Shown piece after piece: positions 12,904 to 56,914 of a stretch of 56,914 bases of DNA (the first letter of the stretch is position 1; each line of letters opens with the position of its first letter). The position numbers and the translations under genes are program-made. The notes below the pieces were generated by a model that made no database searches, was not told where the DNA came from, and was given only the letters and a program-made list of their open reading frames with translations. This stretch comes from Solirubrobacteraceae bacterium (GTDB lineage Bacteria > Actinomycetota > Thermoleophilia > Solirubrobacterales > Solirubrobacteraceae), in assembly GCA_035262945.1 (NCBI GenBank), contig DATFRW010000351.1, forward strand, positions 1 to 56,914, given 5' to 3'.

Positions 12904-12910
12904 GCGTTTG

Positions 12911-13792: not shown

Positions 13793-13833
13793 AGAACGCT
13801 CCCTTTATTGCGGTCCTTCAGAGGTGCGACGCC

Positions 13834-15068: not shown

Positions 15069-15077
15069 ACCGTCGCA

Positions 15078-15083
15078 TACAAT
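15078..15083 (+). promoter_or_regulatory. Candidate -10 element TACAAT, 9 nt upstream of the hyuA-1 start
   Basis: gcaTACAATgccgcccgcGTG. No SD sequence fits between the -10 and the start, which suggests a leaderless or near-leaderless mRNA. Confidence 0.35.
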
Positions 15084-20112: not shown

Positions 20113-20118
20113 GACGCC

Positions 20119-36638: not shown

Positions 36639-37556
36639 ATGGCGGACATCACCGAGATCCGGCAGCCGGGCAGCTACAGCTACGTGTTCTCGCCCTATCC
36701 GGAGCCGGTGGCGACGGTTGATCCCGGCCAGACCGTGGCGATCCACACCGAGGACGCCTTCGAGGGCCGCATCACGACCGAGCAGGACCTCCCCAGCAAG
36801 GTGCTCGGCTCCTACCTCAACCCGCAGACCGGGCCGATCTACGTCAACGGCGCCGAGCCGGGCGACACGCTTGCGGTCACGATCGAGTCGATCGAGCCGG
36901 CGCGCGACTGGGCCGTGAGCGTCTTCGTCCCGTACTTCGGCGGCCTGACGGCGACGCAGGCCACGCGGTTGCTGCACGACCCGCTGCCCGAGCGCCTCTA
37001 CTTCTACGAGCTACGCGACGGCGTCTTCCGCCACGGCGACCGGCTCGCCATCCCGTGGCGCCCGTTCCTCGGCACGATCGGCACGGCGCCCCAGCTCGAG
37101 GCGGTGTCCGCCCTGACGCCCCACAACCACGGCGGCAACATGGACGTGCGCGACACCTGCCCGGGCAACACCGTCTACCTCCCGGTGCGCGTGCCCGGCG
37201 CGCTCTTCTACACCGGCGACGCCCACGGCAGCCAGGGCGACGGCGAGCTGTGCGGCGTGGCGCTCGAGATCTCGGCGCGGTCGGTCCTGAAGTTCGACCT
37301 GATCAAGGGCCAGGCGATCGACTGGCCGCGCATCGAGTCGCCCAAGAAGCTCATGACGGTGGGCAGCGCGCGCCCCATGGAGGACGCCGCTCGGATCGCC
37401 TATGCCGAGCTCGTCGACTGGCTGGCGGCCGATCACGGCTTCGAACGACTCGATGCTTACCAGCTGCTCACCCAGGCCGGCGAGATGTACGTCGGCAACA
37501 TGGTGGACACGAACTACTCGCTGGTGGCCGGGATCGACAAGAGCTACCTGTCGTAG
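36639..37556 (+). CDS. Acetamidase/formamidase family protein (FmdA/AmdA)
   Basis: 305 aa from MADITEI after GAGGAGG. NPQTGPIYV.GAEPGD.L.V.I and GGNMD....PG..VYLPV...GALF..GD.H..QGDGE are the family pattern. Confidence 0.85.
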   Translation: MADITEIRQPGSYSYVFSPYPEPVATVDPGQTVAIHTEDAFEGRITTEQDLPSKVLGSYLNPQTGPIYVNGAEPGDTLAVTIESIEPARDWAVSVFVPYFGGLTATQATRLLHDPLPERLYFYELRDGVFRHGDRLAIPWRPFLGTIGTAPQLEAVSALTPHNHGGNMDVRDTCPGNTVYLPVRVPGALFYTGDAHGSQGDGELCGVALEISARSVLKFDLIKGQAIDWPRIESPKKLMTVGSARPMEDAARIAYAELVDWLAADHGFERLDAYQLLTQAGEMYVGNMVDTNYSLVAGIDKSYLS

Positions 37557-38467
37557 CCGGCCTCCAGGGCCTGGACGAGGGCCGTCACGGTCTCGCAGAC
37601 CGGGGCGCGCAGCCCGACCGCCCGCGCGCGCGGCCCGATGGCGCCGCTGATGACCGCGACCTCGGTGCGCCGGCGGGCCACGACGTCCTGCAGCATCGAG
37701 GGGCGCGCGCCGGGGATGCGCGTGCCGAAGGCGTGGACGTAGGCGACCGGGTCGTCGAACCCGGGGCGCACGCCGTGCGCCCAGCCGACGTCGTAGGCCT
37801 CCTGCGCGCAGCCGGCGGCGACCGACCACGCCGCGGGATCGTCGAGCACGTCGCCGATCGACATCCCGGTGAGCGCGCAGACGGCGCTGAAGGCGACGTT
37901 GCAGATGAGCTTCTCCCAGACGAGCTTGTTGACGTCGTCGAAGGTGGCGACGGTGAACCCCGCGCCGCGCCAGACGTCGGCCACGCGCTCGATGCGCTCG
38001 CTCACCGGCCCGGCGCGCTCGCCGAGGCGCAGCAGCTCCATGCCGTTGTGGTGCACGTGGCCGGGAGCCTCGATCGAGGCGCCGAAGCCGCCCGCCACGC
38101 CGACCGCCACGGGCTCCTCGCCGAGCGCCGCCACCACGCGCTCGACGCTGCCCAGACCGTTCTGGATCGGCAGGACGACCGTCTCGGGCCCGAGCAGCGG
38201 CGCGGCCGAGCGCGCGGCGTCCTCGACGTCGCCCGCCTTCGTGGCGATGACGACCAGGTCGACCTGCCCCGCGTCGCGCGGGTCGGTGGCGGCCGGCATG
38301 CGCACGACGCGGTCGCCGCTTGCCCCGCTGACGCGCAGGCCGCGTTCGCGAATGGCGTCGATGTGCTCGGCCCACGTGTCGACGGCCCAGACCTCGTTGC
38401 CCGCGTCCGCGAGCAGCGCGGCGTACACCGAGCCCATCGCCCCGGTGCCGACGATCGCGATCCTCAC
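37544..38467 (-). CDS. 2-dehydropantoate 2-reductase family (PanE/ApbA-like ketoacid reductase)
   Basis: 307 aa from GTG (VRIAIVGTGAMGS). KLICNVAFSAV (Lys/Asn) and SMLQDV...RRTEV are present. Last gene of the long operon. Its 3' end overlaps the convergent formamidase gene by 13 nt. Confidence 0.82.
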   Translation of the reverse strand: MRIAIVGTGAMGSVYAALLADAGNEVWAVDTWAEHIDAIRERGLRVSGASGDRVVRMPAATDPRDAGQVDLVVIATKAGDVEDAARSAAPLLGPETVVLPIQNGLGSVERVVAALGEEPVAVGVAGGFGASIEAPGHVHHNGMELLRLGERAGPVSERIERVADVWRGAGFTVATFDDVNKLVWEKLICNVAFSAVCALTGMSIGDVLDDPAAWSVAAGCAQEAYDVGWAHGVRPGFDDPVAYVHAFGTRIPGARPSMLQDVVARRRTEVAVISGAIGPRARAVGLRAPVCETVTALVQALEAGYDR

Positions 38468-38483
38468 TGCCGTGCCCTGCTGC

Positions 38484-40148
38484 TCATGCCAGGAAGTAGG
38501 CGCGATTGAGGGGCAGCTCGCCTGCGGGCTCCAGGCGCACGGGCTCGCCGTCGATGCGCACCTCGCGCCGCTCGCCGTCGACCTCGACTGCCGGCGTGGC
38601 GCCGTTGCGCGGCAGGTCGGCCTTGCGGACGGTCCGCGTCCCGCGGACGAGGGCGACCGGTCCACCCCACGCGCCGCGCGCCCGCTCGATCCCGGTCGCC
38701 GCGCTGAACACCGTGGCCAGGTGCGCGGGGCCGGCGCCGGTGCCACCCCAGAGCGCGCCCTGCACGAGCGGCTCGCCAAGGCGGGTGGAGCCGCTGCCCG
38801 ACGCGAGCGGCCCCCACACGGGGAAGCCGCTTTTCAGGATGAGCTGAGGCTTGGCGCCGAAGAACGCCGGGCGCCACAGGACGATGTCGGCGAGCTTGCC
38901 GGGCTCGAGCGAGCCGACCTCGTGGGCGATGCCGTGCACGAGCGCGGGGTTGATCGTCAGCTTGGCGAGGTAGCGCAGGACGCGCTCGTTGGTGCCGTCG
39001 TCGCCCGCGGCGCGCGCCATCACGTGCGCAAGCTGCCAGGTTCGCCGCGTCACCTCGCCGACGCGCCCCATGCCCATGGAATCAGAGCTCATCATGCTGA
39101 TCGCGCCGAGGTCGTGCAGGACCGATTCCGCGGCCATCGTCCACGCGCGGATGCGCCCGCGCGCGGCGGCGGTGTCGAACGGCAGCAGCGGGTTGAGCCG
39201 GTGGACCGTGCGGATCATCTCCTCGTGCTCGGCCACCGCGTTGACGCCGAAGGGCACGGTCGGCGAGGTCGACGAGGGCAGGACATTGTCGTGCGAGACC
39301 GCCTCGAGGAGGTTGACCGGACCGCCGCCGCATCCCTCCACGTGGTAGGCGTGCACGGCCCGGCCGCCGATCGCGGCGAGCGTCTCCTCGAGCGTCGCGG
39401 ACTCCCCCAGCCCGTCGGCGTGCAGCGCCACCTGCATGTCGTGGCGCTCGGCGGCGGCCAAGACGGCATCGACGACCCAGGGGTAGGCACCGACGTCCTC
39501 GTGGACCTTGTAGGCGCCGGCGCCGAGCGCGGCGAGGTCGTCGAGGAAGTCGGCGTTGGCGGTGCTGCCGCGCACGATGGGCAGCAGGTTGATCGGCACC
39601 GCACGCCACGCGCGCAGGATGTTGTCGAGGTTCGCGCGCGGGTTGATGCCCAGGTCGAACGCGCCCGAGTAGCTCATCGCCGCCATCGTGGTCGTCGCGC
39701 CCGCGAGGGCGGCGGGCACGAGCTGCGGGCCGATGAGGTGCACGTGCGAGTCGATCGTCCCGGGCGTGGCGATGAGGCCCTCGCCGGCGACGACGCCGGT
39801 GGCGGCGCTGATCGGGACGGTGACCCCGTCGTCGCGGTCGGGATCCCCGGCGCGGCCGACCGCGGCCACGCGCCCCTCGCGCACCCCGATCGACGTCTTG
39901 CGCACGCCGAGCACCGGATCGACGAGCACGACGTTGGTGACCACGACGTCGAGCGCCTGGTCGAGCGGCCGCTCGCCGGTCGCCATTAGCCCGTCGCGCA
40001 CCGTCTTACCGAAGCCCACCACGGGCTCGTGCCCGGGCCGCCCGTCATCGGCCTCGACCGTCACGAACAGGTCGGTGTCGCCGAGGCGGACGCGGTCGCC
40101 GGTGGTCGGCCCGTACAGCGAGGCGTACTCGGCGCGGGTCAGTCCCAC
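38484..40148 (-). CDS. ureC: Urease alpha subunit (divergent)
   Basis: 554 aa. YGPTTGDRVRLGDT, DSHVHLIGPQ, YKVHED, VALHADGL, HAYHVEG, TVHRL, RGRIR, SSDSMGMGR and TINPA..HGI.HEVGS...GK.AD are all present. The GTG start overlaps ureB by 10 nt. Confidence 0.88.
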   Translation of the reverse strand: MGLTRAEYASLYGPTTGDRVRLGDTDLFVTVEADDGRPGHEPVVGFGKTVRDGLMATGERPLDQALDVVVTNVVLVDPVLGVRKTSIGVREGRVAAVGRAGDPDRDDGVTVPISAATGVVAGEGLIATPGTIDSHVHLIGPQLVPAALAGATTTMAAMSYSGAFDLGINPRANLDNILRAWRAVPINLLPIVRGSTANADFLDDLAALGAGAYKVHEDVGAYPWVVDAVLAAAERHDMQVALHADGLGESATLEETLAAIGGRAVHAYHVEGCGGGPVNLLEAVSHDNVLPSSTSPTVPFGVNAVAEHEEMIRTVHRLNPLLPFDTAAARGRIRAWTMAAESVLHDLGAISMMSSDSMGMGRVGEVTRRTWQLAHVMARAAGDDGTNERVLRYLAKLTINPALVHGIAHEVGSLEPGKLADIVLWRPAFFGAKPQLILKSGFPVWGPLASGSGSTRLGEPLVQGALWGGTGAGPAHLATVFSAATGIERARGAWGGPVALVRGTRTVRKADLPRNGATPAVEVDGERREVRIDGEPVRLEPAGELPLNRAYFLA

Positions 40149-40390
40149 GTGATCTCGAGCTCCCGCGTCGCCCCCGCGGGGATCGCGACACTCGCGCCGG
40201 CGGGCAGGGCGAGCCTGGCCCCCTCGAGGCCCTCGCGCTCGAAGCGCAGCGCCGCGCTGGCCCGGGCCAGGGGGAAGTGGGAGGTCAGGTAGGCGTCGAA
40301 GCGGCCGGTGTTGGTCACCGTGATCTGCCCGCACCGGGCCGCCGCCTGTGGCACCGGCCCGTCGCCCGGGATCACCTCCCCCGGCCTCAT
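40139..40390 (-). CDS. ureB: Urease beta subunit (short, 83 aa)
   Basis: MRPGEV...ITVTNTGRFDAYLTSHF...AALRFERE...G.RLALPAGASVAIPAG.TRE aligns to the UreB core. ATGA overlap with ureA. Confidence 0.8.
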   Translation of the reverse strand: MRPGEVIPGDGPVPQAAARCGQITVTNTGRFDAYLTSHFPLARASAALRFEREGLEGARLALPAGASVAIPAGATRELEITWD

Positions 40391-40695
40391 CGCGCCACGA
40401 GCCCTTCGAGCGGCACCAGCCGGCTGCCGTCGCCGAACGTCGCCTCGACCTGCAGCGGCGCGTCGAGCAGCTCGGCGACGCCGGGCTCGAGCTGCTCGCG
40501 GGCGAACAGGCCGCGCACGCAGCCGCGCACCTCGTCGAATCCGGCGCCGGCCCGCGCGCGCTCGAGCGCGACGTCGCACGCCATCGCCACGCAGTCGGGG
40601 TGGCTGAGCCGGATCCCCTCGCGCAGCCGGCGCCGCGCGAGCTCGGCCGCGGTGAAGATCAGCAGGCGCTCGGTCTCGCGAGGCGAGAGCTGCAT
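40387..40695 (-). CDS. ureA: Urease gamma subunit
   Basis: 102 aa. MQLSPRETERLLIFTAAELARRRL.EG..L..P..VA......E.AR.G...QVEATF.DGS.LV matches UreA. The start overlaps the upstream stop (TGATG). Confidence 0.88.
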   Translation of the reverse strand: MQLSPRETERLLIFTAAELARRRLREGIRLSHPDCVAMACDVALERARAGAGFDEVRGCVRGLFAREQLEPGVAELLDAPLQVEATFGDGSRLVPLEGLVAR

Positions 40696-42056
40696 CACGC
40701 GGCGACCGGCGCCACCGCGGAGAGGTACTCCCCGTCGCCCGGCTGCCCGGTGACCTCGCCCTCGGCGTAGATGATCCGGCCGCGCAGGACCGTGTACATC
40801 GGGTAGACGCGCAGCTCGTAGCCGTCGAACGGCGACCACTTCTCCTGGTCGTGGTACTCGAGGTCGCGTGCGTCGAGCGTGCGCCGGCCGTTGGTCTCGA
40901 CGACGGCGAAGTCGGCGTCGGCGCCCAGCGCGATCTCGCCCTTGCGCGGGCCGAGCCCGAAGATGTGCGCCGGGTTGGACGACACGAGGCGGGCGATGCG
41001 CGTGATGGGGATGTCGCGGCGGTGCAGCGCCTCGGTGGCGAACACCGGGAAGAAGACCTCGACCCCGTTGCCCGACCCGGGCGCCTGCGCCCAGATGTCC
41101 TCGGCCACTGTCTTGGGCAGCGGCGCGTGGTCGGAGCCGACGGAGTGCACCTTGCCGCCCGCCACCAGCCGCCACAGCCAGTCCACCGACGCGCGCTCGC
41201 GCGTGGGCGGGTTCCACTTCAGCCGGATGTCGGAGACCGAGTCCTCCTTGGTGGTGCACAGGTAGTGGTGGCAGGTCTCGGCCCACGCGTCGGCGCCGCG
41301 GGCCCGGGCGGCGGCGATCGCCTCGACCGTCTGCGGCGAGCTGGCGTGCGCCACCACGACGCGGGCGCCGGTGACCTCGGCGAGCAGGGCGACGTTCTGG
41401 GCGGCCGCGACCTCGCTGTACCACGGGCGCGCGTCGTCCCACGCGGCGAGGTCCTTGCGGCCCGCGGCCATCAGGCGCTCGGTCTCCCAGTCGACGATCT
41501 GGGCGTTCTCGCAGTGCACCGTCGTGACGCGCCCGAGCGCCGCGGCCCGGCGGAGCGCGTCGAGCGTCTGGCCCTCGTCGACGCCGGGGTACATCCCGGG
41601 CGGCGCCACGCCGCCGGTGAAGAGCTTGAAGGCGGCGGCGCCGAGGTCGGCCATCGCAGTCATCTGGTCGGGGTCCTCGGCGAGGTAGCCGCCGAAGCAG
41701 GCGTAGTCGACGTGGCAGCTGTCGCGGATCGCGTCGAGCTTGTCGCGCAGCGTGTCCGCCGTGAGCGTCGGCGGCTTGTCGAGCGGCATGTCGACCACCG
41801 TCGTCACCCCGCCCTTGGCCGCCGCCCGCGTCGCGCCCTCGTACGTCTCCCAGCCGTAGCCGCGGAAGCAGTGGAAGTGCTCGTCGATGACTCCGGGCAT
41901 CACCGTCAGCCCCGTGGCGTCGATCGTCTCGTCGGCGTCGATGGCGGCGTCGGAGATCAGCGCGACGCGTCCGTCGCTGACGCCGATGTTGACCTTGACC
42001 ACGTCGTCGCCCAGGACGACGTCGCCATTGAGGATCGCCAGGTCGAGATGCGTCAC
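40695..42056 (-). CDS. Allantoinase/dihydroorotase-like cyclic amidohydrolase
   Basis: 453 aa from GTG (VTHLDLAILNG). GVIDEHFH (HxH), AAFKLF (Lys), TVHCEN, VVAHASS and VGSDHAP are present. GTGA overlap with the upstream gene. Confidence 0.85.
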   Translation of the reverse strand: MTHLDLAILNGDVVLGDDVVKVNIGVSDGRVALISDAAIDADETIDATGLTVMPGVIDEHFHCFRGYGWETYEGATRAAAKGGVTTVVDMPLDKPPTLTADTLRDKLDAIRDSCHVDYACFGGYLAEDPDQMTAMADLGAAAFKLFTGGVAPPGMYPGVDEGQTLDALRRAAALGRVTTVHCENAQIVDWETERLMAAGRKDLAAWDDARPWYSEVAAAQNVALLAEVTGARVVVAHASSPQTVEAIAAARARGADAWAETCHHYLCTTKEDSVSDIRLKWNPPTRERASVDWLWRLVAGGKVHSVGSDHAPLPKTVAEDIWAQAPGSGNGVEVFFPVFATEALHRRDIPITRIARLVSSNPAHIFGLGPRKGEIALGADADFAVVETNGRRTLDARDLEYHDQEKWSPFDGYELRVYPMYTVLRGRIIYAEGEVTGQPGDGEYLSAVAPVAA

Positions 42057-43015
42057 GTTGTCCTCCCGGATGTCGTCGCCGGCGGCAGCACGAGGTCGAC
42101 CGGGCGCCCCTCGCAGAAGGCGAGGATCGCGTCGGTCATGCCCGAGAACTGGCGCTCGAGCGTTTCCTGGGTCAGCCAGGCGATGTGTGGCGTGATGATG
42201 AGGTTGGGCACTGCGGCGAGGCTGCGCGCGCGCTCGGCTTCCAGCGGCTCGCCCTCGACCACGTCGAGGCAGGCGCCCCCGAGGTGGCCGGCCGCGAGCA
42301 GGTCGCAGAGCGCCTCGGTGTCGACGATCTCGCCGCGCGCGGTGTTGACCAGCCAGGCGCCGGGGCGCATCGACTCGAGGCGGTCGCGGTCCAGCAGCCG
42401 GTGCGTCTCGGGAGTGAGCGCGACGTTGACCGAGACGGCATCGCTGCGGCGCAGCAGCTCGTCGAGGTCGACGCGCTCGACGCCCTCCGGGCGCACGTCG
42501 CTGCGCGACCAGCCGAGGACCTGCATGCCCACCGCGCGCGCGAGCGCCGCCACGCGCCGGCCGATCGAGCCCAGCCCGATCACCCCGAGCGTGTGGCCGG
42601 CGAGGTCGGCGCCGATGAAGCCGGTGAACTCCCAGCGCCCCGCGGCGGTCGACGCGGCCGCTTCGGCCAGCCGCCGGCGCCCCATCATCAGCATGCCGAG
42701 CGTGTACTCGGCAACCGAGGCGATGGGTGCCGTCGGGACCGTGACGACTCCCACGCCGCGGCGCGCAGCCGCTTCGACGGCGATGTGCGAGTAGCCGGCC
42801 GTGCGCGTGGCGACCAGCTCGAGACCCGGCAGCCGCGCGATCACGTCCTCGGTGATCGGCGTGTAGGTGTAGAGCGCGGCCAGCACGGTCGCGCCCTGCG
42901 CCCGCTCGACCACGTCGTCGGCGCTCGCGGGCCCGCGTGCGATCCGCGTCGGCAGCGATGCGGCGAGACGTGCCAGCCGTGGCTCGTCGGGCTCGAGGCA
43001 GTCGACCACCGCCAC
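42053..43015 (-). CDS. D-isomer-specific 2-hydroxyacid dehydrogenase (NAD-binding)
   Basis: About 320 aa. GVIGLGSIGRRVA, NTARGEIVD, LDVVEGEP and ITPHIAW give the R-E-H triad. The GTG start (43015 or 43009) is uncertain. Confidence 0.82.
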   Translation of the reverse strand: MAVVDCLEPDEPRLARLAASLPTRIARGPASADDVVERAQGATVLAALYTYTPITEDVIARLPGLELVATRTAGYSHIAVEAAARRGVGVVTVPTAPIASVAEYTLGMLMMGRRRLAEAAASTAAGRWEFTGFIGADLAGHTLGVIGLGSIGRRVAALARAVGMQVLGWSRSDVRPEGVERVDLDELLRRSDAVSVNVALTPETHRLLDRDRLESMRPGAWLVNTARGEIVDTEALCDLLAAGHLGGACLDVVEGEPLEAERARSLAAVPNLIITPHIAWLTQETLERQFSGMTDAILAFCEGRPVDLVLPPATTSGRTT

Positions 43016-43038
43016 GAGGTGGGTCCCGGGCGCGGCGC

Positions 43039-43944: not shown

Positions 43945-43947
43945 GCC

Positions 43948-45843: not shown

Positions 45844-47897
45844 CGGCTGCCCTCCAGCCCGCGGATGATGAGATTGCCGTAGCCGTCGACCTTGGCACCG
45901 TAGCCCGGCTCGATGACCGTGGTGGCGTCCTGCTGGATCACGATCGCCGGCCCGGAGATCGAGTCGCCGGCGTTCAGGGCGTCGCGGTCGTAGATCCCGG
46001 TCGGACGCCACTCGCCTTCGAAGAAGACCTGCTCCTGGCGCTGTGGTCGCGCCTCGGAGCCGCTGGCGTCGTCCGCGGCGGTCACGACCCCGTCGGCACT
46101 GGCGCTGGCGCCGACCACGCGCACCGTGGCGATCTCGATCGGCGCGCTGAGGTCGAAGCCGTAGCGGCGCCGGTGCTCGTCCTCGAACTGCTCCCGCACG
46201 CGGGCGGCGAAGCTCTCGTCGACGGCGCCGGGATCGAGCTCGCAGGGGATCTGGATGTCCTGCATCGCGTAGCGGCAGTCGGCATAGAACGAGAACGAGC
46301 GCCGGGAGTCGTCCACCCCCTCGCGCTCGAGCCAGTCGGCCGCCTCGGAGCGCAGCTCCGAGAGGACCCCGGAGAGGTCGGAGGCCGGCGTGTCCTCGGC
46401 GATCTTCAGGTAGGTGCGCGCGAACTCGTTCTGCACCTCGGCGACCTGGAAGCCGAACGCGCTGAGCACGCCGGGCGTCGCCGGGATGACGACCGGATCG
46501 GCGTGAATGAGCCGGCCGAGCGCGTTGGCATGCAGCGGGCCGGCGCCGCCGAAGGCGATGAGGCCGAACTCGCGCGGGTCGAAGCCGCGCTCGATGCTCA
46601 CGACGCGAAGCGCGGCGTGCATGTTCTCGTTGGCAATGTCAACGATCGCCTGGGCCGCCTGCGTGATGTCGACGCCGAGGCCGTCGGCGACCTTGCCGAC
46701 CGCGCGCTTGGCGGCCTCCTCGTCGATCTCCAGGGCGCCGGCGAGCAGCGTGCTCGGTGGGATCCGGTGCAGCACGACGTTGGCGTCGGTGACCGTCGGC
46801 TGGTCGCCGCCGCGCCCGTACGCCGCGGGGCCGGGCTCGGCGCCCGCGCTCTGGGGCCCGACGCGCAGCGCGCCGACCGGCGTGAGGTAGGCGATGGAGC
46901 CGCCGCCGGCGCCCACGCTGTGGACGTCCACGCCGCGCGACTGGAACTGGTAGTAGCCCAACTGGGCCTCGCGCTTGATCGTCACCGCGCCGTCGACGCA
47001 GATCGAGACGTCGGTCGAGGTGCCGCCGACGTCGAGCGTGAGCACGTTCGGCGCGCCGATGCGGCGCGCGAGGTAGGCGGCTCCGACCACGCCGCCCGAC
47101 GGCCCCGAGAAGGCGGTGTCGACCGGGCGCTCCTTGGTGGACCGCGTGCTCATCGTGCCGCCGTCGGAGCGCACCACGCCGAGGCGGTTGGCGAACCCGA
47201 CCTCGCGCAGGACGCGCTCGAGGCCGTCGACGTAGCGGATCACCTGCGGCTGCGCGTAGGCGTTGAGCACCGCGGTCAGCGTCCGTTCGTACTCGCGGTA
47301 CTCCGACACGAGGTCCGAGGAGATCGAGATCGGCAGCTCGGGATGCGCCCCGCGAGCGATGTCGCGGGCGCGGCGCTCGTGCGCAGGGTTGACGTAGGAG
47401 TTCAGGAAGCCGACCGTGACCGACTGCACGCCCTCGGCGATGAGCTCGTCGATGGCGCGGCGCACCTCGTCCTCGTCGAGCTCCTCCACGACGGACCCGT
47501 CGGCGGCGATGCGGCCGGTGATCCCGCGGGTGTTCCACAGCTCGACCAGCGGTGGCGGCTTGATCATGCCCATCCAGCCGTACAGCGGGCCGGGCGTCCA
47601 CGCGCGCGCGAGATGCAGGATCTGCTCGTTGCCGCGCGTGGTCAGCAGGCCGCCGGTGGCGCCCTTGCTTTCGAGGATGAGGTTGGTGACGACGGTGCTG
47701 CCGTGGAGGATGAGCTCGAGGTCGCTCGGCTGCGCCCCGACGCGATCGCAGGCCTCCTTGACGCCGGCGATGACGCCGACCGACTGGTCCTCGGGCGTCG
47801 ACAGCACCTTGACCAGGGTGATCTCCCCGGAAGCCGTGTCCTGCATCTGGACGTCGGTGAACGTCCCACCAACATCAACGCCCAAGCGGTACCCCAT
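45840..47897 (-). CDS. hyuA: Hydantoinase/oxoprolinase family, A subunit (pair 4)
   Basis: 685 aa from MGYRLGVDVGGTFTDV after GGAGG. HGSTVVTN, LDVGGTSTD and GAGGGS are present. Confidence 0.92.
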   Translation of the reverse strand: MGYRLGVDVGGTFTDVQMQDTASGEITLVKVLSTPEDQSVGVIAGVKEACDRVGAQPSDLELILHGSTVVTNLILESKGATGGLLTTRGNEQILHLARAWTPGPLYGWMGMIKPPPLVELWNTRGITGRIAADGSVVEELDEDEVRRAIDELIAEGVQSVTVGFLNSYVNPAHERRARDIARGAHPELPISISSDLVSEYREYERTLTAVLNAYAQPQVIRYVDGLERVLREVGFANRLGVVRSDGGTMSTRSTKERPVDTAFSGPSGGVVGAAYLARRIGAPNVLTLDVGGTSTDVSICVDGAVTIKREAQLGYYQFQSRGVDVHSVGAGGGSIAYLTPVGALRVGPQSAGAEPGPAAYGRGGDQPTVTDANVVLHRIPPSTLLAGALEIDEEAAKRAVGKVADGLGVDITQAAQAIVDIANENMHAALRVVSIERGFDPREFGLIAFGGAGPLHANALGRLIHADPVVIPATPGVLSAFGFQVAEVQNEFARTYLKIAEDTPASDLSGVLSELRSEAADWLEREGVDDSRRSFSFYADCRYAMQDIQIPCELDPGAVDESFAARVREQFEDEHRRRYGFDLSAPIEIATVRVVGASASADGVVTAADDASGSEARPQRQEQVFFEGEWRPTGIYDRDALNAGDSISGPAIVIQQDATTVIEPGYGAKVDGYGNLIIRGLEGSR

Positions 47898-47928
47898 CCC
47901 TACCTCCGTTCCTCGTCGCGGCTGAGGG

Positions 47929-49179
47929 TCACACCACACCCTGCTCGCGCAGGCGCTCGAGCTCGGCCTCGTCGACGCCGACCTCGTTGAGTACATCGGC
48001 CGTGTCGGCGCCGAGCGTCCAGCGGGCGGCCTGGCGAACGCGCCCCGGCGTTCGGGTCAGCCGCGGCACGACGCCGGGCGCGGTGATCCGTCCGTGGACC
48101 TCGTCGTCGTACTCGATGAGCAGACGGCGCTCCTTGAAGTAGGGGTCGCGGTAGACGTCCTCGGCGGTGTAGACGGGGGCGCAGACCACGCCCGCCTCGT
48201 TGACCAGTCCGTCGAGCTCCTCGGCGGTGTGCTTGATCGCCCACTCGCCGATGAGCTCGTCCAGCAGGTCCTCGTTCTGCCCACGAGCGTGATGGGAGTT
48301 GAAGCGCTCATCGTCGGCGAGCTCGGGCTTGCCGATGAGGGCGGCCAGGCGGCGCCACAGCGTGTCGTGGTTGGCCGCGATCACCACCCAGCGGCCGTCC
48401 TTGGATCGGTAGACGTTGGAAGGAGCGATCCGTGGCAGCCGCGGCCCGGTCGGCTCGCGGATGACGCCCGCCTTCTCGTACTCGAGCACCGAGGACTCCG
48501 TCATGGCGAAGCACGCGTCAGTGATCGAGGCGTCGACGACCTGGCCCTCCATGCCGCGCGCGTCGCGGGCGTAGAGCGCCAGCAGGATCCCCTGGAACGC
48601 CGACTGCGCCGCGAGCGTGTCGCCGAGGGAAATCCCGTAACGGGGCGGCGCCTCGTCGGGGTAGCCGTTGAAGTACCGCAGGCCCGACATCGCCTCGCTG
48701 GCCGACGCGAACCCCGGCCGGTCGCGGTAGCGGCCGATCTGGCCGTATCCGGTCACGCGCGCGTAGATGGCGCGCGGGTTGACGGCATGGACGTCCTCGG
48801 GTCCGAGGCCCCAGCGTTCCATGGTCCCCGGGCGGAAGTTCTCGACGATGATGTCGGCCTCCTGAGCGAGGCGCCGTCCGACCGCCTGGCCCTCTTCGGT
48901 GCGCAGGTTCAGCGTCACCGAGCGCTTGTTGCGCGCCAGGATCGACCACCACAGCGAGTGGTCGTTGTGGCGCAGGCGCCCCCAGTCGCGCATCGCGTCG
49001 CCCTTGGGGGGCGGCTCGACCTTGATCACCTCGGCGCCGAAGTCGCCCAGGAGCGTGCCGACGTAAGGGCCGGCGAGGAGCTGGCCGAACTCGACGGCCT
49101 TCAGCCCCTGCAGCGGCCCATCGGCCAGCGCCTTGCCCGCGTCGCGCGTGTCCGTGGTGCCGCTCTGGACGCCGGTCAT
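47929..49179 (-). CDS. Family III CoA-transferase (CaiB/BaiF)
   Basis: 416 aa from MTGVQSG. LQGLKAVEFGQLLAGPYVGTLLGDFGAEVIKVEPP and ENFRPG are present. ATGA overlap with the permease gene. Confidence 0.88.
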   Translation of the reverse strand: MTGVQSGTTDTRDAGKALADGPLQGLKAVEFGQLLAGPYVGTLLGDFGAEVIKVEPPPKGDAMRDWGRLRHNDHSLWWSILARNKRSVTLNLRTEEGQAVGRRLAQEADIIVENFRPGTMERWGLGPEDVHAVNPRAIYARVTGYGQIGRYRDRPGFASASEAMSGLRYFNGYPDEAPPRYGISLGDTLAAQSAFQGILLALYARDARGMEGQVVDASITDACFAMTESSVLEYEKAGVIREPTGPRLPRIAPSNVYRSKDGRWVVIAANHDTLWRRLAALIGKPELADDERFNSHHARGQNEDLLDELIGEWAIKHTAEELDGLVNEAGVVCAPVYTAEDVYRDPYFKERRLLIEYDDEVHGRITAPGVVPRLTRTPGRVRQAARWTLGADTADVLNEVGVDEAELERLREQGVV

Positions 49180-50231
49180 GTCGCCTTTCTCACCCCGCGC
49201 CTGCGCGCGAACTGCGAGAGGGTCACGGCGACAACCAGCGCACCGCCGTAGAACAGCTGCTGGACGAAGTTCTGCACGCCGAGCAGCTGCAGGCCGGTGA
49301 TGCCCGAAACGAGGAAGTAGACGGCGATGAACGTCCCGAGCGGGTTGAAGCGGCCGGGGTAGATCGCGGTCGCGCCCAGGAACGCCGCCGCGAAGGCGGG
49401 CAACAGGAACGTCTGCCCCGAGGCCGGGTCCGCGCCGCCGAGGCTGCCCGCGTACATGACGCCCGCAAGACCGGCCATGAAGCCGGTGAGGATGAAGGCG
49501 CCCCAGCGGATGCGGCTGACGCGCAGTCCGCTCAGGCGCGACACGCTGCGCCCGCGGCCGACGAACAGCAGCCGCCGCCCCAACGGGGTGAACTCGAACA
49601 CGTAGAACAGCAGCAGGGTGGCCGCGACGCCGTAGTAGAAGATGAGCGAGATCCCGGCGATGCGGTTGCCGATCGTCCACTCGGTGAGCTGGTTCGAGAC
49701 GCCCGTGATGTTGTTGCCGTGGCTGATCCACTGCACGATGCCGAGAGCGATCGTGCCGCTGCCCAGGGTGACGATGAAGGAATCCACCCCCACGAGCACC
49801 ACCAACCCACCGTTGAGGAAGCCCAGCGTGGTCGCCGCCAGGACCGCGACGATGATCGCCGGCAGGATCGGCCAGCCGTGCTGGGTGTTGAGCACGGCGA
49901 TGATCATGGCGCTCAACGACAGGTTCGACGCGATGGACAGGTCGAAGTCGCCCGCGGTGAGGGTGACGATGAGCCCGAGGGTGAGCACGAGCAGGACCGC
50001 CTGCGATCCGAAGATCGTCTGGAAGTTGCCCGACGTCGGGTAGGTGTCCGGCTTGATGAGGCTGAAGACGAGGACGACGACGCCCCAGGCGACCAGGAGC
50101 GCCCAGCGCTCGAAGTTCAGCGATCTCAGCGCCGACGGCGAGCGACGAGTCGGCTCGTCCGGTCCCGTTCGGGGCTCGACAGTCTCGATCGGCTCTGCGA
50201 TCTCGCCGGGTGGGATGTTCTTGGCTTCCAT
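49176..50231 (-). CDS. Sugar-type ABC transporter permease (RbsC/AraH-like, BPD_transp_2)
   Basis: 351 aa from MEAKNIP with multiple TM helices. The GDFDLSIAS and F.GRGRS...SG patterns are typical of CUT2 permeases. Confidence 0.85.
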   Translation of the reverse strand: MEAKNIPPGEIAEPIETVEPRTGPDEPTRRSPSALRSLNFERWALLVAWGVVVLVFSLIKPDTYPTSGNFQTIFGSQAVLLVLTLGLIVTLTAGDFDLSIASNLSLSAMIIAVLNTQHGWPILPAIIVAVLAATTLGFLNGGLVVLVGVDSFIVTLGSGTIALGIVQWISHGNNITGVSNQLTEWTIGNRIAGISLIFYYGVAATLLLFYVFEFTPLGRRLLFVGRGRSVSRLSGLRVSRIRWGAFILTGFMAGLAGVMYAGSLGGADPASGQTFLLPAFAAAFLGATAIYPGRFNPLGTFIAVYFLVSGITGLQLLGVQNFVQQLFYGGALVVAVTLSQFARRRGVRKAT

Positions 50232-51874
50232 CAGTCGCCAGCCTCCATCGCCGATTCCCTCAGTGTCACGCTGTTGTAGACCTGCTCGCCGATCCGGTCC
50301 TTGGTGACCTCGGTCCCCGAGATCTCCGCGATCACGCGTCCCCGGGCGAGAACGATCACGCGGTCGCAGATCGCGGCGAGCTGCTCGTAGTCGGAGCTGG
50401 CGCACAGGATGCACGCGCCCTGGCCGTGCGCCGCGTCGCCGAGCATCGCGAAGATCTGGGCGCGCGCCCCGATATCGACGCCTTGCGTCGGCTCGTGCAG
50501 GAAGATCACGTTCGGCTTGGTCTGCAGCCACTTGGCCAGCAGCGCCTTCTGCTGATTGCCGCCGCTGAGCGACTCGTACGTGAGCGCCGGGTCGGGCGGG
50601 CGGACGTCGAACTCGCCCAGCACGCGCTTCGCGCGCTTGCGCATGGGCCGCCGCTTGAGCCCGTACGGGCCCCTGTACTCGGGCAGCACCTGCAGCATCA
50701 CGTTCTCCCCCACCGGCAGCTCGGGCACGCTTCCGTCCCGCTGGCGGTCGGCGGGCAGCAGAGCGAAGCCGTTGGCCACGGCCCGGTCGGGCGACATCAG
50801 CCTGAGGTCAAACGTCACGCCGTGCGTGCTCAGCGACCCCTCCGTGCACGCGCGCGCGCCGAACAGGAAGTACGGGATGTCCTCGAAGCCCGAGCCCATC
50901 AGGCCCGTGATCCCGACGATCTCGCCGCGGCGGACCTCGAGGTCGACGCCCTTGAGGACCCCGCCGGCGAGCCCCTTGACCGAGAGGCCGATCTCGCGAC
51001 CCGACGGCTGGCTGTCGAGCGCCATGCTCTCCAGGCGCCGGCCGATGATCATCTGAACGAGCTCGGCCTCGGACGTGCTGGCGGTGTCGACGGTGCCCTG
51101 TAGGCGCCCGTCGCGCAGGACGGTGACGCGATCGGTGACCTCGCGGACCTCGTCGAGGTCGTGGGACACGAAGAGCACGCTCGCGTCGCCGCTGGCGACG
51201 ATGTTGCGGACGATCCGGAACAGCGCCTGCGTGCCCTCCTGGGGCAGGAAGACCGTCGGCTCGTCGAGGATCAGCAGGCCGCCGGCGCTGTGGCGCGCGG
51301 CCTGCTCGGAGCGGATGTCCTCGACCGCCCGGACGATGGCCAGCAGCGCCCGCTCGGTGGGCGTCAGCGCGGTCACCAGCGCGGAGGGGTCGAGGTCGAC
51401 GTTGAAGCTCTTGAACGTCTCGCGCGCCTTGCGACGCTCCTCGCGCCACGAGATGTAGACGCCCTTCTGGGCGATCAGCTCGCCAACGCGCAGGTTCTCG
51501 AGGACGGTCAGCTCGGGCACGAGCCCAAGGTCCTGGTGCACGAAGGACAGCCCGAGGTCTCGGAACTGACCTGGCGCCAGCGGCAGCGACACGTCCTCGC
51601 CGCTGACCTTGAGCTCGCCCCCGGGGTCGGGAGCGTGGAAGCCGTTGAGGATCTTGATGAGCGTCGACTTGCCCGACCCGTTCTCTCCGAGAAGGCCATG
51701 GACCTCGCCGGGGAGGATCGTCAGGTCGACGCCCTTCAGGGCCTGCTCGCCGCCGAAGCTCTTGGACAGGTTGCGAAGCTCGATGACCGGAACGCCGGAC
51801 GCCGCGGGGCCGGAAGCGTTCGCTCCCGGCCCCATCGCCGACTGCCCGCTGGCGCGGTCGGCCGAATCCGTCAT
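50231..51874 (-). CDS. Sugar-type ABC transporter ATP-binding protein (duplicated ABC domains, RbsA-like)
   Basis: About 547 aa. The first domain has GENGSGKST, and LLILDEPT is present. The second domain is degenerate (LSGGNQQK, IFLHEPTQGVD). The start is at 51874, or at an internal Met. Confidence 0.85.
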   Translation of the reverse strand: MTDSADRASGQSAMGPGANASGPAASGVPVIELRNLSKSFGGEQALKGVDLTILPGEVHGLLGENGSGKSTLIKILNGFHAPDPGGELKVSGEDVSLPLAPGQFRDLGLSFVHQDLGLVPELTVLENLRVGELIAQKGVYISWREERRKARETFKSFNVDLDPSALVTALTPTERALLAIVRAVEDIRSEQAARHSAGGLLILDEPTVFLPQEGTQALFRIVRNIVASGDASVLFVSHDLDEVREVTDRVTVLRDGRLQGTVDTASTSEAELVQMIIGRRLESMALDSQPSGREIGLSVKGLAGGVLKGVDLEVRRGEIVGITGLMGSGFEDIPYFLFGARACTEGSLSTHGVTFDLRLMSPDRAVANGFALLPADRQRDGSVPELPVGENVMLQVLPEYRGPYGLKRRPMRKRAKRVLGEFDVRPPDPALTYESLSGGNQQKALLAKWLQTKPNVIFLHEPTQGVDIGARAQIFAMLGDAAHGQGACILCASSDYEQLAAICDRVIVLARGRVIAEISGTEVTKDRIGEQVYNSVTLRESAMEAGD

Positions 51875-51878
51875 GGCG

Positions 51879-53105
51879 TCAGGACCCGCCGCCCGACCAC
51901 AGCTTCGTGTAGCCGTCGACGTACGCGTTGCCGTACCCGAGGTTCGGGCTCGGCGGTGTGCCGGCTTCCTTGATGTTCGCGTCGCTGAAGATGCGCAGCG
52001 GCGTCTGCTCGTTGCCATCCTCGATGATCGGCGCGCCGGTGAGGACGCGCCCCACCTGGTCGGCGGTCGCCCACGCCAGCCACGTGATGTTCTCGCCGGC
52101 GTCCATGTCCATGATGTCGCCGTCCTGGATGAGCTTCATCACGGCGGGAGTGCCGTTGTAGGAGGCGATCTTCACGCTGCCCGACTTGCCGGCCGCCGTG
52201 ATGCCCTGCTGGGCGAACAGCGACATCGAGTCGTAGATCGGCAGCACCCAGTTGACGCCCGGGTCCTGCTGGATCGCGGTCTGCGTCTCAGAGGCGATCT
52301 TGGTCGCCCAGTCGGCGAGCGGGACGTTGATCGACTTGAACTTGCACTTGGGACAGTGGTCGTCGAACTCCTTCTTCATGGCCGCCGTGATGCCGGTCGA
52401 CGGCGGCACGTCGGGCGAGCTGAAGGAGATCACGTTGGCCTTGCCGTTGGACTTCGCGATCGCCCAGTCGGCCTCGAGCCGAGCGGCCTCCCAGAACGGG
52501 ACGGTCACGAACGCCGTCGTCAGCGCCTTGGCCTCCGCGCCCGGTCCGTTCGGCGGCTGAGCATCAAGCTGACCGTTCTGGAAGTCGTGGGTGACCACGA
52601 TCGGGATGCCGGCCGCCTTGGCCTTCTTCATGATCGGGATCATCAGCGTGAGCGGATGTCCCTGGGCCAGGATGATCACGTCGGCCTTCTGGGAGATCGC
52701 CTGGTTGATGCCGGCAGCCCATTCGTTCGGCGTGCCCTGGTTGGTGTACTCGACCCACTTGGCGCCGTACTTCTCGACGACCTTCTTGGCCTCCTTGTCG
52801 ACCGAGACGACGTACGGGACGGCGCTCGTGACGGGGATGTTGAAGATCGTCTTGCCCTTGATCTTCGACATGTCGAAGGCCGGGGCGTCGAGCTTGAACT
52901 CCGGAACCGCGCTCGCCGCCTCGATCTGTTTGTTCGCGTACGCGACGCCGGGGTCACCCGACGTGGTCGATGAGCCGGTGCCTGAGCCGCCCCCGGAGGT
53001 GGCGCTCGAGTTGTCGCTACTGCTGCCGCACGCGGCGATCACGAAGGCGGCCCCCAAGACCGCCAACGCTAGCCCAAGGGCCTTGAAGGAACGTGGAAGG
53101 TGCAA
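51879..53105 (-). CDS. ABC transporter substrate-binding lipoprotein (periplasmic-binding-protein type I, sugar family)
   Basis: Signal peptide plus lipobox (LAVLGAAFVIAAC-G), a Ser/Gly linker, then a PBP fold. The start is taken as TTG 53105, 8 nt after GAGGAG. ATG 53168 is the alternative. GC is lower than in neighbouring genes. Confidence 0.8.
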   Translation of the reverse strand: MHLPRSFKALGLALAVLGAAFVIAACGSSSDNSSATSGGGSGTGSSTTSGDPGVAYANKQIEAASAVPEFKLDAPAFDMSKIKGKTIFNIPVTSAVPYVVSVDKEAKKVVEKYGAKWVEYTNQGTPNEWAAGINQAISQKADVIILAQGHPLTLMIPIMKKAKAAGIPIVVTHDFQNGQLDAQPPNGPGAEAKALTTAFVTVPFWEAARLEADWAIAKSNGKANVISFSSPDVPPSTGITAAMKKEFDDHCPKCKFKSINVPLADWATKIASETQTAIQQDPGVNWVLPIYDSMSLFAQQGITAAGKSGSVKIASYNGTPAVMKLIQDGDIMDMDAGENITWLAWATADQVGRVLTGAPIIEDGNEQTPLRIFSDANIKEAGTPPSPNLGYGNAYVDGYTKLWSGGGS

Positions 53106-53233
53106 AGTGCCGCTCTCCTCGATCTGGCTGCTATGCGAAGTTCTCCCGAGAACCCGAGGTCCCGCCACGAACCCAAGTCTCCTCCCAAGAAGAACCGAAG
53201 GTATACAGCGGTACGCAACCGCGCACTATGCAG

Positions 53234-53263
53234 AGCGTATTGAGGCTTCTCCGGCGCTGTCAA
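53234..53263 (-). promoter_or_regulatory. Candidate promoter TTGACA-18 nt-TACGCT for the 13-gene operon
   Basis: On the minus strand, -35 TTGACA lies at 53263-53258 and -10 TACGCT at 53239-53234. This predicts a 5' UTR of about 120 nt before the SBP gene. Confidence 0.4.
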
Positions 53264-56532: not shown

Positions 56533-56914
56533 TCGCGCTGCCCTCCAACGCCGCGGGCGCACCGAGGGCCGAGAGCACCGCCTGCGTCGTGACGCCGACG
56601 GCGAAGTTGTTGTGCAGGCGGCGCATCGCGTCCTCGTGCAGCTGCGGCGTGCGGTCCGCGCACGCGTCCTCGACGAGCAGCACCTCGAAGTCGAGGTCGC
56701 AAGCGTCGCGCACCGTGCTCTCCACGCAGCCGCTCGTGACCACGCCGGTGGTGATGAGCGAGCGCACGCCGAGCTGACGCAGCAGCACGCCGAGGTTGGT
56801 GGAGAGGAAGGCGCTGGCGGTGGTCTTGTCCAGGAGGACGTCGCCATCCCGCGGCTCGAGGCCATCGATCAGATCCGCCTGCGGGCTGTCGCGGGCCACC
56901 GCGATGCCGAAGTC
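56522..56914 (-). CDS. Isochorismatase-family cysteine hydrolase, paralog 3 (5' end outside the window)
   Basis: The open frame runs to the window edge. LLDKTTASAFLST.L and ITTGVVTSGCVESTVRDA (Lys and Cys motifs) are present. Confidence 0.8.
   Translation of the reverse strand, partial: DFGIAVARDSPQADLIDGLEPRDGDVLLDKTTASAFLSTNLGVLLRQLGVRSLITTGVVTSGCVESTVRDACDLDFEVLLVEDACADRTPQLHEDAMRRLHNNFAVGVTTQAVLSALGAPAALEGSASGR

Follow-up and report, generated by a model that had tools for sequence, protein, structure and literature searches.

A divergent urease-fold enzyme coupled to a cyclic amidohydrolase in a candidate cyclic-ureide operon of a Solirubrobacteraceae bacterium

INTRODUCTION

Why a bacterium would keep urease-like genes in the middle of a catabolic operon is a puzzle. 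The window, by which we mean the whole stretch of 56,914 nucleotides analyzed here (contig DATFRW010000351.1 of a Solirubrobacteraceae bacterium), contains 13 minus-strand genes in which a trio of urease-like subunits stands among an ATP-binding cassette (ABC) importer, ring-opening hydrolases, and enzymes of CoA and 2-oxoacid chemistry (Table 1). An earlier note on this DNA had read the genes as one operon of no characterized pathway and had supposed that its urease hydrolyzes urea released from an imported ureide or N-heterocycle. The question extends beyond one contig, as urease is treated as a single-substrate enzyme and a gene annotated as "urease subunit alpha" in a soil or gut metagenome is taken as a sign of ureolysis. 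Here, we asked what kind of urease the trio is, which genes travel with it, and what the operon might degrade. The gene association is real, conserved, and unpublished, and its most interesting part is a divergent urease-fold enzyme with a fixed coupling to a cyclic amidohydrolase (CycAH), rather than the presence of urease as such.

RESULTS

The urease-like trio is not a standard urease. All three subunits miss the urease equivalog cut-offs, and the alpha-like subunit passes the broad subfamily model PRK13207 (625, cut-off 354) and is approximately 46% identical to the alpha subunit of Klebsiella aerogenes urease (PDB 2KAU/1EJW). The metal ligands H134, H136, K217, H246, H272, and D360 are invariant in 110 of 110 members compared, taken from the clade and the wider family, and the same is true of the catalytic residues H219, H320, D221, and R336. 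Around this center, the pocket is remodeled. The pocket loop GGGTGPAxGSKATTVTPG is replaced by MSYS---GAFDLGINP, which is three residues shorter and carries an invariant Asp (Asp165) aligned with Ala167. Moreover, HEDWG becomes HEDV in the window protein (HEDW is kept in no family member), EGAGGGHAPD becomes EGCGGGP-VN, SDxQAMGR becomes SDSMGMGR, Ala363 becomes Gly, and the flap MxMVCHHL becomes MIRTVHRL, such that VCHH is exchanged for TVHR. The beta-like subunit ends without the C-terminal 20 or so residues, both here and in relatives of the clade, while canonical beta subunits have approximately 100 to 105 residues. The canonical loop, HEDW, the flap, and the beta C terminus are near-invariant in ureases with an adjacent ureG.

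The genomic setting of the trio is also unusual. Neither ureDEFG nor a canonical urease was found in the 57-kb window, and ureDEFG was absent within 10 kb at 15 of 16 noncanonical loci but present at 4 of 4 canonical loci. In a metagenome-assembled genome (MAG) of Gaiellales (L008, 9451-18490), the trio is followed, 1.8 kb downstream, by a canonical ure(AB)-C-G-D-E-F cluster that is complete. Because a complete cluster adjoins it there, the pairing argues for a nonredundant role of the trio. A gene for an M28/M20 peptidase lies between the two in that genome. A CobW-type GTPase gene at 11585-12595 (minus strand) of the window was considered as UreG and rejected, as the protein is COG0523 (cobW plus CobW_C); it lies roughly 26 kb from the urease-like genes and is a possible metallochaperone. 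Judged from the missed cut-offs, the remodeled pocket, the truncated beta-like subunit, and the lack of ureDEFG nearby, the trio is a divergent, noncanonical branch of the urease family and not the standard in-operon urease that had been assumed.

The alpha-like protein belongs to a discrete clade at 63% identity or more, after which identity drops to about 55%. H280P and Q362M/L are changes of the window clade's own. An identical alpha-like protein is encoded on a 57.5-kb ENA metagenome contig. The nearest relatives otherwise come from MAGs of uncultured Thermoleophilaceae and Solirubrobacterales (74 to 82% identity) and from the cultured Baekduia soli (73%), and the clade spans Thermoleophilia, Solirubrobacterales, and Gaiellales. 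The wider family, at 50 to 55% identity, includes protein P0109 of a Streptomyces sp. (L037), which is 54% identical to the window alpha and whose gene is preceded by a PucR-type regulator gene and followed by genes for a major facilitator superfamily (MFS) transporter, a thiamine pyrophosphate (TPP) enzyme, and an aldehyde dehydrogenase. We also note a third "urease alpha" family in uncultured Actinomycetota (L010-L031 and L045-L058; for example, L013:10001-11650), in which the loop reads TAGFE-------EPP and the flap AVHGG, HEDW and the metal ligands are kept, and ureDEFG is absent within 10 kb at every locus whose flank is long enough.

Which genes accompany the trio was determined by mapping the 13 proteins and their recurring neighbors onto 19 clade loci, 15 of which had enough flank for adjacency to be counted. 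In 13 of these 15, the CycAH gene immediately precedes the urease-like genes, and a D-isomer-specific 2-hydroxyacid dehydrogenase (HADH) gene precedes that of CycAH in 11 (L001, L002, L004-L007, L034-L036, L039, and L042). One of these, L039, is an independent JGI metagenome contig of 21 kb in which HyuB through PanE and beyond are 100% identical to the window. The same scans also recovered canonical and other urease loci, and none of the core-linked families was found around those. In each of the contexts seen, the urease-like family has neighbors that act on 2-oxo and 2-hydroxy acids (HADH, PanE, a GlcD-like oxidase, a TPP enzyme, or DAO).

Around the core, there are at least four architectures, in which the HMG-CoA-lyase-type enzyme (HMGL), CaiB, HyuAB, the FmdA-type amidase, and the importer recur in differing orders and strands. 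In type I (the window, L039, L004, and L034), the order is CaiB-HyuA-HyuB-HMGL-(GlcD-like FAD oxidase)-HADH-CycAH-UreABC-PanE, with a convergent FmdA-type amidase gene and a methyltransferase gene; genes for the substrate-binding protein (SBP), ATPase, and permease ahead of CaiB are visible in the window, and the remaining type I loci end sooner. Type II (L006, L035, and partly L007) reads SBP-ATPase-permease-GntR-HMGL-FAD oxidase-HADH-CycAH-UreABC-FmdA. Type III (L002 and L036, with L009 and L044 partial) reads HADH-CycAH-UreABC-acyl-CoA dehydrogenase and faces CaiB-ADH-isochorismatase-HMGL-like-MFS. Type IV (B. soli L001 and L042) reads HADH-CycAH-UreABC-HyuAB, with a PucR regulator gene ahead of it in L001. 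Aconitase-type genes near the core in L002 and L036 were considered as a mesaconate or maleate hydratase and rejected, as they are genuine leuCD.

The modules differ in how widely they are kept. In L004, L006, L007, L034, and L035, the core has an HMGL ortholog (69 to 81% identity) upstream of it, and a GlcD-like FAD oxidase gene that is absent from the window separates HMGL from HADH. A PanE gene follows ureC only in the closest relatives (L004, L034, L039, and L040), and in the L006/L035 type a GntR gene takes the place of CaiB-HyuAB. Thus, what is widely conserved is HADH-CycAH-UreABC, plus an HMGL-like gene in two architectures. The 13-gene set of the earlier note therefore recurs in its core, while CaiB-HyuAB and PanE are limited to the closest relatives; the prospect that the arrangement is conserved in no relative, which that note held would refute it, is not borne out. 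Its statement that no characterized pathway has this composition also agrees with full-text literature searches aimed at this gene set or at atypical ureases, which yielded no matching published pathway.

The window genes look like one transcription unit. The 13 open reading frames (ORFs) are intact, span 37544-53105, and have a G+C content at third codon positions of 0.93 to 0.98 by ORF and codon-position analysis, in a window of 71% G+C. Pfam and NCBIfam matched every family that had been named, in the order given. From the SBP gene to the PanE gene, the junctions measure +4, -1, -4, +31, -4, +3, -4, -4, -1, -4, -10, and +16 nt. Start/stop overlaps thus occur at 8 of 12 junctions, two more than the earlier note had counted, and the widest gap is 31 nt, as it had stated. 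A terminator scan found no minus-strand terminator within the operon, and a strict sigma-70 consensus scan called no minus-strand promoter inside it. Because of the eight overlaps, the gaps of at most 31 nt, and the absence of an internal promoter or terminator match, we favor a single unit, as first proposed. All genes tested are under purifying selection (dN/dS of 0.15 to 0.43 versus relatives).

Transcription may start from a promoter-like element ahead of the SBP gene, in which TTGACA (53263-53258) and TACGCT (53239-53234) are separated by 18 nt. Both boxes of this earlier candidate are present and the -35 is perfect, but the same consensus scan called no promoter at 53234-53263, and the -10 matches TATAAT at 3 of 6 positions, fitting TANNNT only. 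The SBP gene most likely begins at TTG 53105, which has a ribosome-binding site (GAGGAG) and gives a signal peptide; the alternative is GTG 53168. A search of the 250-nt leader against Rfam found no riboswitch, and the sole Rfam match in the window was a tRNA. The leader does contain a 16-nt element, GCGTACCGCTGTATAC, found once in the window and with exact copies among 74 loci only in the SBP leaders of L006 (44-59) and L035 (44-59). Its GTATAC core is similar to operators of the GntR family, and a GntR/FCD regulator gene lies within the operon in L006 and L035. It is plausible, from this resemblance, that GCGTACCGCTGTATAC is an operator. A copy with three mismatches lies just upstream of HyuA_4 (15065-15080) and may be due to chance.

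Directly upstream of the operon and on the same strand, genes at 53422-56899 encode an isochorismatase, a methylisocitrate-lyase-like enzyme of the PEP-mutase family, a D-hydantoinase-like amidohydrolase, and a DUF6282 protein. The amidohydrolase is 33% identical to CycAH. Read-through from these genes into the operon is possible because no terminator was detected before the 250-nt gap.

What the operon imports is suggested by the importer. Its composition is complete for the CUT2 type, with a Peripla_BP_4 SBP, a fused double ATPase, and a BPD_transp_2 permease. The ATPase falls below all NCBIfam equivalog cut-offs, no NCBIfam SBP equivalog matched the SBP, and the SBP matches solved sugar-binding proteins weakly (E 3e-10). 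The closest cultured relatives of the SBP, at 47 to 61% identity, are from Kineococcus, Gordonia, and Rathayibacter. In those bacteria, the same importer of three genes stands in clusters that also encode a genuine RutA (609 to 628 bits, cut-off 498), a CN_hydrolase resembling carbamoyl amidases, an AtzE-like amidase, a RutB-like isochorismatase, and a flavin reductase. Because the SBP relatives sit inside genuine RutA clusters, the ligand points to a pyrimidine type, and because, in addition, the kin of CycAH are L-hydantoinase and allantoinase, the pyrimidine/hydantoin class is indicated. An imported cyclic ureide, already part of the earlier proposal, thus seems the most sensible substrate class.

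The clusters of those relatives (L071:10001-20576, L072:3831-13808, and L073:10001-19625 in Kineococcus, Gordonia, and Rathayibacter) are Rut-like, combining importer, RutA, CN_hydrolase, AtzE-like amidase, MFS transporter, and isochorismatase; stand-alone flavokinase or ribBA genes lie nearby, and the composition is unlike the E. coli rutA-G operon. Riboflavin or lumichrome catabolism, prompted by the flavokinase, flavin reductase, and luciferase-like genes near SBP homologs, was rejected because the monooxygenase is a genuine RutA and the window is without P450, Rieske, xanthine-oxidase, and catechol-dioxygenase genes. The neighborhood of an orphan SBP homolog (L074) was uninformative, and NCBIfam searches with the isochorismatase, FmdA, and GlcD-like neighbors gave only subthreshold matches by which to name a substrate.

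Two kinds of ring-opening enzyme are encoded in the operon. The HyuA and HyuB genes are adjacent and coupled and encode full-length Pfam domains; the best NCBIfam match of HyuA is the caprolactamase alpha subunit (503 bits, cut-off 1000), and HyuA is 85% identical in L034. CycAH scores best against allantoinase (TIGR03178), as had been supposed, but below the cut-off (326.5 against 357.85), with lower scores for ErtD (297 against 600) and TIGR02033 (237 against 393). Among solved proteins, CycAH is closest to the Arthrobacter L-hydantoinase 1GKR and next closest to allantoinases. By these scores, CycAH is intermediate between L-hydantoinase and allantoinase.

An amidase of the FmdA type is probably part of the system as well. 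Its gene converges on the operon and overlaps the 3' end of the PanE-like gene by 13 nt. The protein is 81 to 87% identical beside the core in L004, L006, L007, L034, and L035, the best conserved of the neighbors, and in L006 and L035 the gene is on the same strand directly after ureC. The limits of 37544-53263 previously drawn thus enclose the 13 genes but probably not the full system.

The remaining genes may concern the carbon skeleton. The CaiB-type transferase scores below cut-off against each of its nearest named relatives, namely, oxalate CoA-transferase, succinate-glutarate/HMG CoA-transferase, and YfdE. HMGL aligns with solved HMG-CoA lyases and keeps their RDGLQ, HxHN, and GGCPFAP motifs.

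Table 1. Features of the operon and its surroundings, by position in the window
Feature	Length	Coordinates	Strand	Basis
Second HyuA/HyuB pair (HyuAB_2)		30808..34628	-	Pfam; ortholog of pair after ureC elsewhere
FmdA/AmdA-type amidase, convergent	305 aa	36639..37556	+	FmdA_AmdA; solved relative 5UBU, 330 bits
PanE/ApbA 2-oxoacid (or acyl-CoA) reductase	307 aa	37544..38467	-	ApbA and ApbA_C; TIGR00745, 242 > 141
Urease-alpha-like catalytic subunit	554 aa	38484..40148	-	TIGR01792, 535 < 680
Truncated urease-beta-like subunit	83 aa	40139..40390	-	Urease_beta, 42 bits; TIGR00192, 38 < 90
Urease-gamma-like subunit	102 aa	40387..40695	-	Urease_gamma, 82 bits; TIGR00193, 73 < 82
Cyclic amidohydrolase (CycAH), hydantoinase/allantoinase type	453 aa	40695..42056	-	NCBIfam and solved relatives
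D-isomer-specific 2-hydroxyacid dehydrogenase (HADH), first core gene	329 aa	42053..43042	-	NCBIfam kin (2-hydroxyacid DH/PGDH/glyoxylate reductase), below cut-offs
HMG-CoA-lyase-type DRE-TIM lyase (HMGL)	301 aa	43039..43944	-	PRK05692, 273 > 246
HyuB	631 aa	43948..45843	-	Hydantoinase_B, 450 bits; ATGA overlap with hyuA
HyuA, ATP-dependent hydantoinase/lactamase alpha-type subunit	685 aa	45840..47897	-	Hydant_A_N, Hydantoinase_A, Hydant_A_C
Family III (CaiB-type) CoA-transferase	416 aa	47929..49179	-	CoA_transf_3, 393 bits, full length
ABC permease	351 aa	49176..50231	-	BPD_transp_2; TGATG overlap with ATPase gene
Fused double-domain ABC ATPase	547 aa	50231..51874	-	Two ABC_tran domains; CUT2-type relatives
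Substrate-binding lipoprotein (SBP)	408 aa	51879..53105	-	Peripla_BP_4, 93 bits; lipobox IAAC
Operator-like 16-nt element GCGTACCGCTGTATAC	16 nt	53201..53216	-	Leader alignment with L006 and L035; between -10 box and SBP start
Promoter-like element TTGACA-18 nt-TACGCT		53234..53263	-	Read from sequence; predicted

Related genes are found throughout the window, which encodes four HyuAB pairs, three cyclic amidohydrolases, several isochorismatases, and one classical HyuA-HyuB-M20 module. By this gene content, the whole window is a ureide/lactam island. HyuAB_2 is 59 to 71% identical to the HyuAB directly after ureC in L001 and L042 and 52 to 56% identical to the L002 pair, whereas the in-operon HyuAB is only 46 to 51% identical to those same pairs. 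Judged by identity, the HyuAB found after the urease-like genes in types III and IV is the ortholog of HyuAB_2 and not of the in-operon pair. HyuAB_2 is convergent with another HyuAB at 26973-30844 (plus strand), the HyuB genes overlapping at their 3' ends, and the fused HyuAB of L003 is nearest to the latter pair. At 15093-20994 (plus strand), HyuA_4 and HyuB_4 are followed by an M20 amidase of the hydantoinase/carbamoylase family that passes NF006771 and TIGR01879 and by a tartronate-semialdehyde-reductase-like gene; HyuAB_4 with its M20 carbamoylase provides an internal comparison for the urease-containing operon, which is without such a carbamoylase.

Two further loci lie farther away. At 8524-10596 (minus strand), a single ORF of 690 residues encodes an acyl-CoA lyase of the CitE/HpcH type and a family III CoA-transferase as one fused protein, with an IclR regulator gene immediately upstream and cyclase and isochorismatase genes after it; similar families occur near the core in L034. 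At 3457-5627 (minus strand), a diaminopropionate-ammonia-lyase-like PALP enzyme is encoded beside an M20 hydrolase like ArgE, DapE, and YgeY, with a divergent LysR gene, a pairing reminiscent of ygeX-ygeY in the purine-related island of E. coli.

DISCUSSION

How a urease-fold enzyme might serve the operon is best considered with the genes that surround it. We propose that the 13 genes of this soil Thermoleophilia bacterium form a single cotranscribed operon, that the operon serves to degrade a carboxylated cyclic ureide of the pyrimidine/hydantoin class, and that the urease-fold enzyme removes the ureido nitrogen. On the sequence evidence, we consider this proposal an even call. The lipoprotein SBP and the ABC system would import the ring compound, and CycAH would open the ring to give a ureido acid, while the ATP-dependent HyuAB would open a related ring or one resistant to simple hydrolysis. 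With its intact binuclear metal center and remodeled pocket, the urease-fold enzyme would then take the ureido nitrogen off as NH3 and CO2, its substrate most likely being the ureido acid itself. It would thereby fill the N-carbamoylase role that M20- and nitrilase-family enzymes have in the classical hyu and allantoin pathways. The FmdA-type amidase would remove a leftover amide, and HADH and the PanE-like reductase would interconvert the resulting 2-oxo and 2-hydroxy acids. Finally, the CaiB-type transferase would make a CoA ester that HMGL cleaves (or condenses) to yield acetyl-CoA and a small oxo acid. The carbon might pass through a branched C5/C6 hydroxy-diacid of the HMG or citramalate type, or through a C2 route from oxalate via oxalyl-CoA to glyoxylate, by analogy with Frc/YfdE and PanE2.

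Why the urease-fold enzyme should act on a ureido group and not on urea follows from what the operon encodes. Pfam and NCBIfam recognized no allantoicase, ureidoglycolate lyase, arginase-type enzyme, or M20/nitrilase carbamoylase among the 13 proteins. Because there are two ring openers, no urea-releasing enzyme, and no carbamoylase, direct action on the ureido nitrogen is the simplest scheme. The earlier idea of an imported and ring-opened ureide is therefore retained, but with no urea-releasing enzyme recognized, the hydrolysis of released urea becomes one of two readings.

Several observations weigh against our proposal. CaiB-HyuAB and PanE are missing in L006 and L035, so parts of the 13-gene set may belong to different pathways. 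In L003 and L008, the trio occurs without HADH-CycAH. Every urease catalytic residue is kept, such that plain urea hydrolysis is possible; a true urease could be supplied with urea by the FmdA-type amidase acting on an acyl-urea; and accessory genes could lie elsewhere in the genome. The position of Asp165 in the pocket depends on an alignment across a three-residue deletion. The ligand of the SBP is a weak inference from 47 to 61% identity. Finally, neither version of the carbon module convincingly explains the role of HMGL.

The trio might instead be a genuine urease, either self-activating or activated in trans by distant ureDEFG genes. Oxidation by HADH and hydrolysis by CycAH would then yield oxalurate, ureidomalonate, or a similar acyl-urea, from which the FmdA-type amidase would free urea for the urease to hydrolyze, and the dicarboxylate would be processed via CaiB, PanE, and HMGL. 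Bacillus subtilis makes an active urease from ureABC without known accessory genes, and L008 shows that a canonical accessory set can adjoin the trio. The invariant active-site residues, the permissive subfamily model that alpha passes, the conservation of the amidase above all other neighbors, and the oxalate CoA-transferase kinship of CaiB together with the PanE2 precedent for oxalyl-CoA reduction all fit such a route. Nonetheless, it is hard to see why a true urease would replace the loop, HEDW, the flap, and the beta C terminus when these hardly vary beside ureG, miss all three equivalog cut-offs, lack accessory genes within 10 kb at nearly every locus (15 of 16), or be redundant beside the complete cluster of L008. 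We consider a genuine urease possible but unlikely.

Two other explanations appear weaker still. The 13 genes could be a cotranscribed mosaic in which the importer, the HyuAB lactamase, and separate modules for ureides and for organic acids of the CoA/HMG type serve no single pathway. Module content does vary, as with the GntR gene that stands for CaiB-HyuAB in L006 and L035, the PanE gene confined to the closest relatives, and the GlcD-like oxidase missing from the window, and the presence of four HyuAB pairs and three cyclic amidohydrolases in one island suggests frequent shuffling. Chance poorly explains, however, why the same families rejoin the core in different orders and strands across architectures I to III, and translational coupling crosses the module borders, which makes a mosaic improbable. 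Alternatively, the urease-fold enzyme could be a cyclic-guanidine deiminase of the creatinine or 2-iminohydantoin type, in which the invariant Asp binds guanidinium and the product, a hydantoin or cyclic urea, is opened by HyuAB or CycAH. In L003, the trio is followed by genes for an isochorismatase, a fused HyuAB, another isochorismatase, OCD, and two DAO proteins, an order that mirrors the route from creatinine through N-methylhydantoin and N-carbamoylsarcosine to sarcosine (PMC12623156), and the new Asp in the pocket loop would fit. This context is the only one of its kind, the Asp is placed by alignment, a deiminase has no precedent on the urease scaffold, and with no carbamoylase family among the 13 genes the convergent FmdA-type amidase would have to serve. 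We find a deiminase very improbable.

If our proposal of a ureido-cleaving enzyme is correct, many "urease subunit alpha" annotations misstate function, and a textbook scaffold gains a new activity. More tentatively, and with rather less than an even chance of being right, the trio may be the first recognizable representative of a large family of urease-fold amidohydrolases in Actinobacteria and Chloroflexota. Such enzymes would have a remodeled pocket, be without dedicated ureDEFG, and act on substituted ureas, namely, ureido acids from opened pyrimidine or hydantoin rings and possibly cyclic guanidines. The operon would then be an undescribed hydrolytic, partly ATP-driven route for cyclic ureides joined to CoA-dependent C-C cleavage. 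It is a concrete candidate for hydrolytic breakdown of pyrimidine/hydantoin-type ureides in Thermoleophilia, an abundant but poorly cultured soil class in which one cultured species, B. soli, carries the core.

Known systems resemble the operon in parts. In its proposed working, the operon is akin to systems of hydantoin or pyrimidine utilization. The canonical ureABC-ureDEFG cluster of K. aerogenes is alike in its gamma/beta/alpha organization, metal ligands, and catalytic His, Asp, and Arg, but the window trio differs in its replaced motifs, short beta, absence of nearby accessory genes, and catabolic-operon setting. A second ure(AB)C cluster without accessory genes has been noted in Streptomyces coelicolor and Streptomyces avermitilis (SCO5525/5526) and is uncharacterized (PMC2492869). 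The Streptomyces enzyme of L037 has the same noncanonical loop, TVHR flap, and short beta as the window, is likewise without ureDEFG, and lies in a catabolic operon. It differs in that gamma and beta are fused, in its MFS, TPP enzyme, and aldehyde dehydrogenase neighbors, and in having no cyclic amidohydrolase.

Classical assignments to allantoin, reductive pyrimidine, or hyuABC pathways were rejected, as each fails at least one defining feature. ATP-dependent hydantoin utilization is encoded by hyuA-hyuB-hyuC(-hyuE) in Pseudomonas sp. NS671. In the creatinine route, ATP-dependent HyuAB acts on N-methylhydantoin and an isochorismatase-type amidase then converts N-carbamoylsarcosine to sarcosine (PMC12623156). 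Common to both is the opening of a five-membered ureide ring by HyuA/HyuB followed by carbamoyl removal. Compared with hyuABC(E), the window operon is without an M20, nitrilase, or isochorismatase carbamoylase or a racemase and adds a second ring hydrolase, which is metal dependent, as well as the urease-fold trio and a CoA/lyase module. Compared with the allantoin pathway, it is without the M20 AllC, allantoicase, and ureidoglycolate lyase families. Of the reductive PydA-PydB-PydC pathway, it has only a dihydropyrimidinase-superfamily member, with no PydA or PydC family. The actinobacterial Rut clusters (RutA, RutB-like isochorismatase, and flavin reductase) share the importer subfamily. The window, however, is without RutA and RutF, and its only luciferase-like gene, at 20998-21981, is of the F420 type. 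Moreover, ring opening is oxygenolytic in the Rut pathway, whereas here it is proposed to be hydrolytic, with one enzyme ATP dependent.

For the carbon module, the closest comparison is oxalate assimilation, in which PanE2 of Methylobacterium extorquens is a PanE-family oxalyl-CoA reductase (PMC8411744). The formyl-CoA/acetyl-CoA:oxalate CoA-transferases Frc/YfdE plus PanE2 and the window have in common a family III CoA-transferase with oxalate CoA-transferase kin and a PanE-family reductase, but the window CaiB and PanE fall far below the equivalog cut-offs, and the operon encodes no oxalyl-CoA decarboxylase. We regard the analogy as a lead. Hydrolytic dismantling of a pyrimidine ring has counterparts in flavin breakdown, where the riboflavin route of Stadtman's Pseudomonas RF reportedly released urea and oxamide. 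In the actinobacterium Nocardioides simplex, LumH, LumI, and LumM dismantle the pyrimidine ring of lumichrome hydrolytically to pyruvate and acetoacetate (PMC12746152). The logic is the same as that proposed here, in which a ring hydrolase is followed by a ureido hydrolase, an amidase, and C-C cleavage to oxo acids. The likeness extends to L035, where split TPP_enzyme_C and TPP_enzyme_N genes (183 and 180 aa; 12826-13916, minus strand) after the FmdA-type amidase gene resemble LumK/LumL, the two-subunit heterocycle decarboxylase of the lumichrome pathway (PMC12746152).

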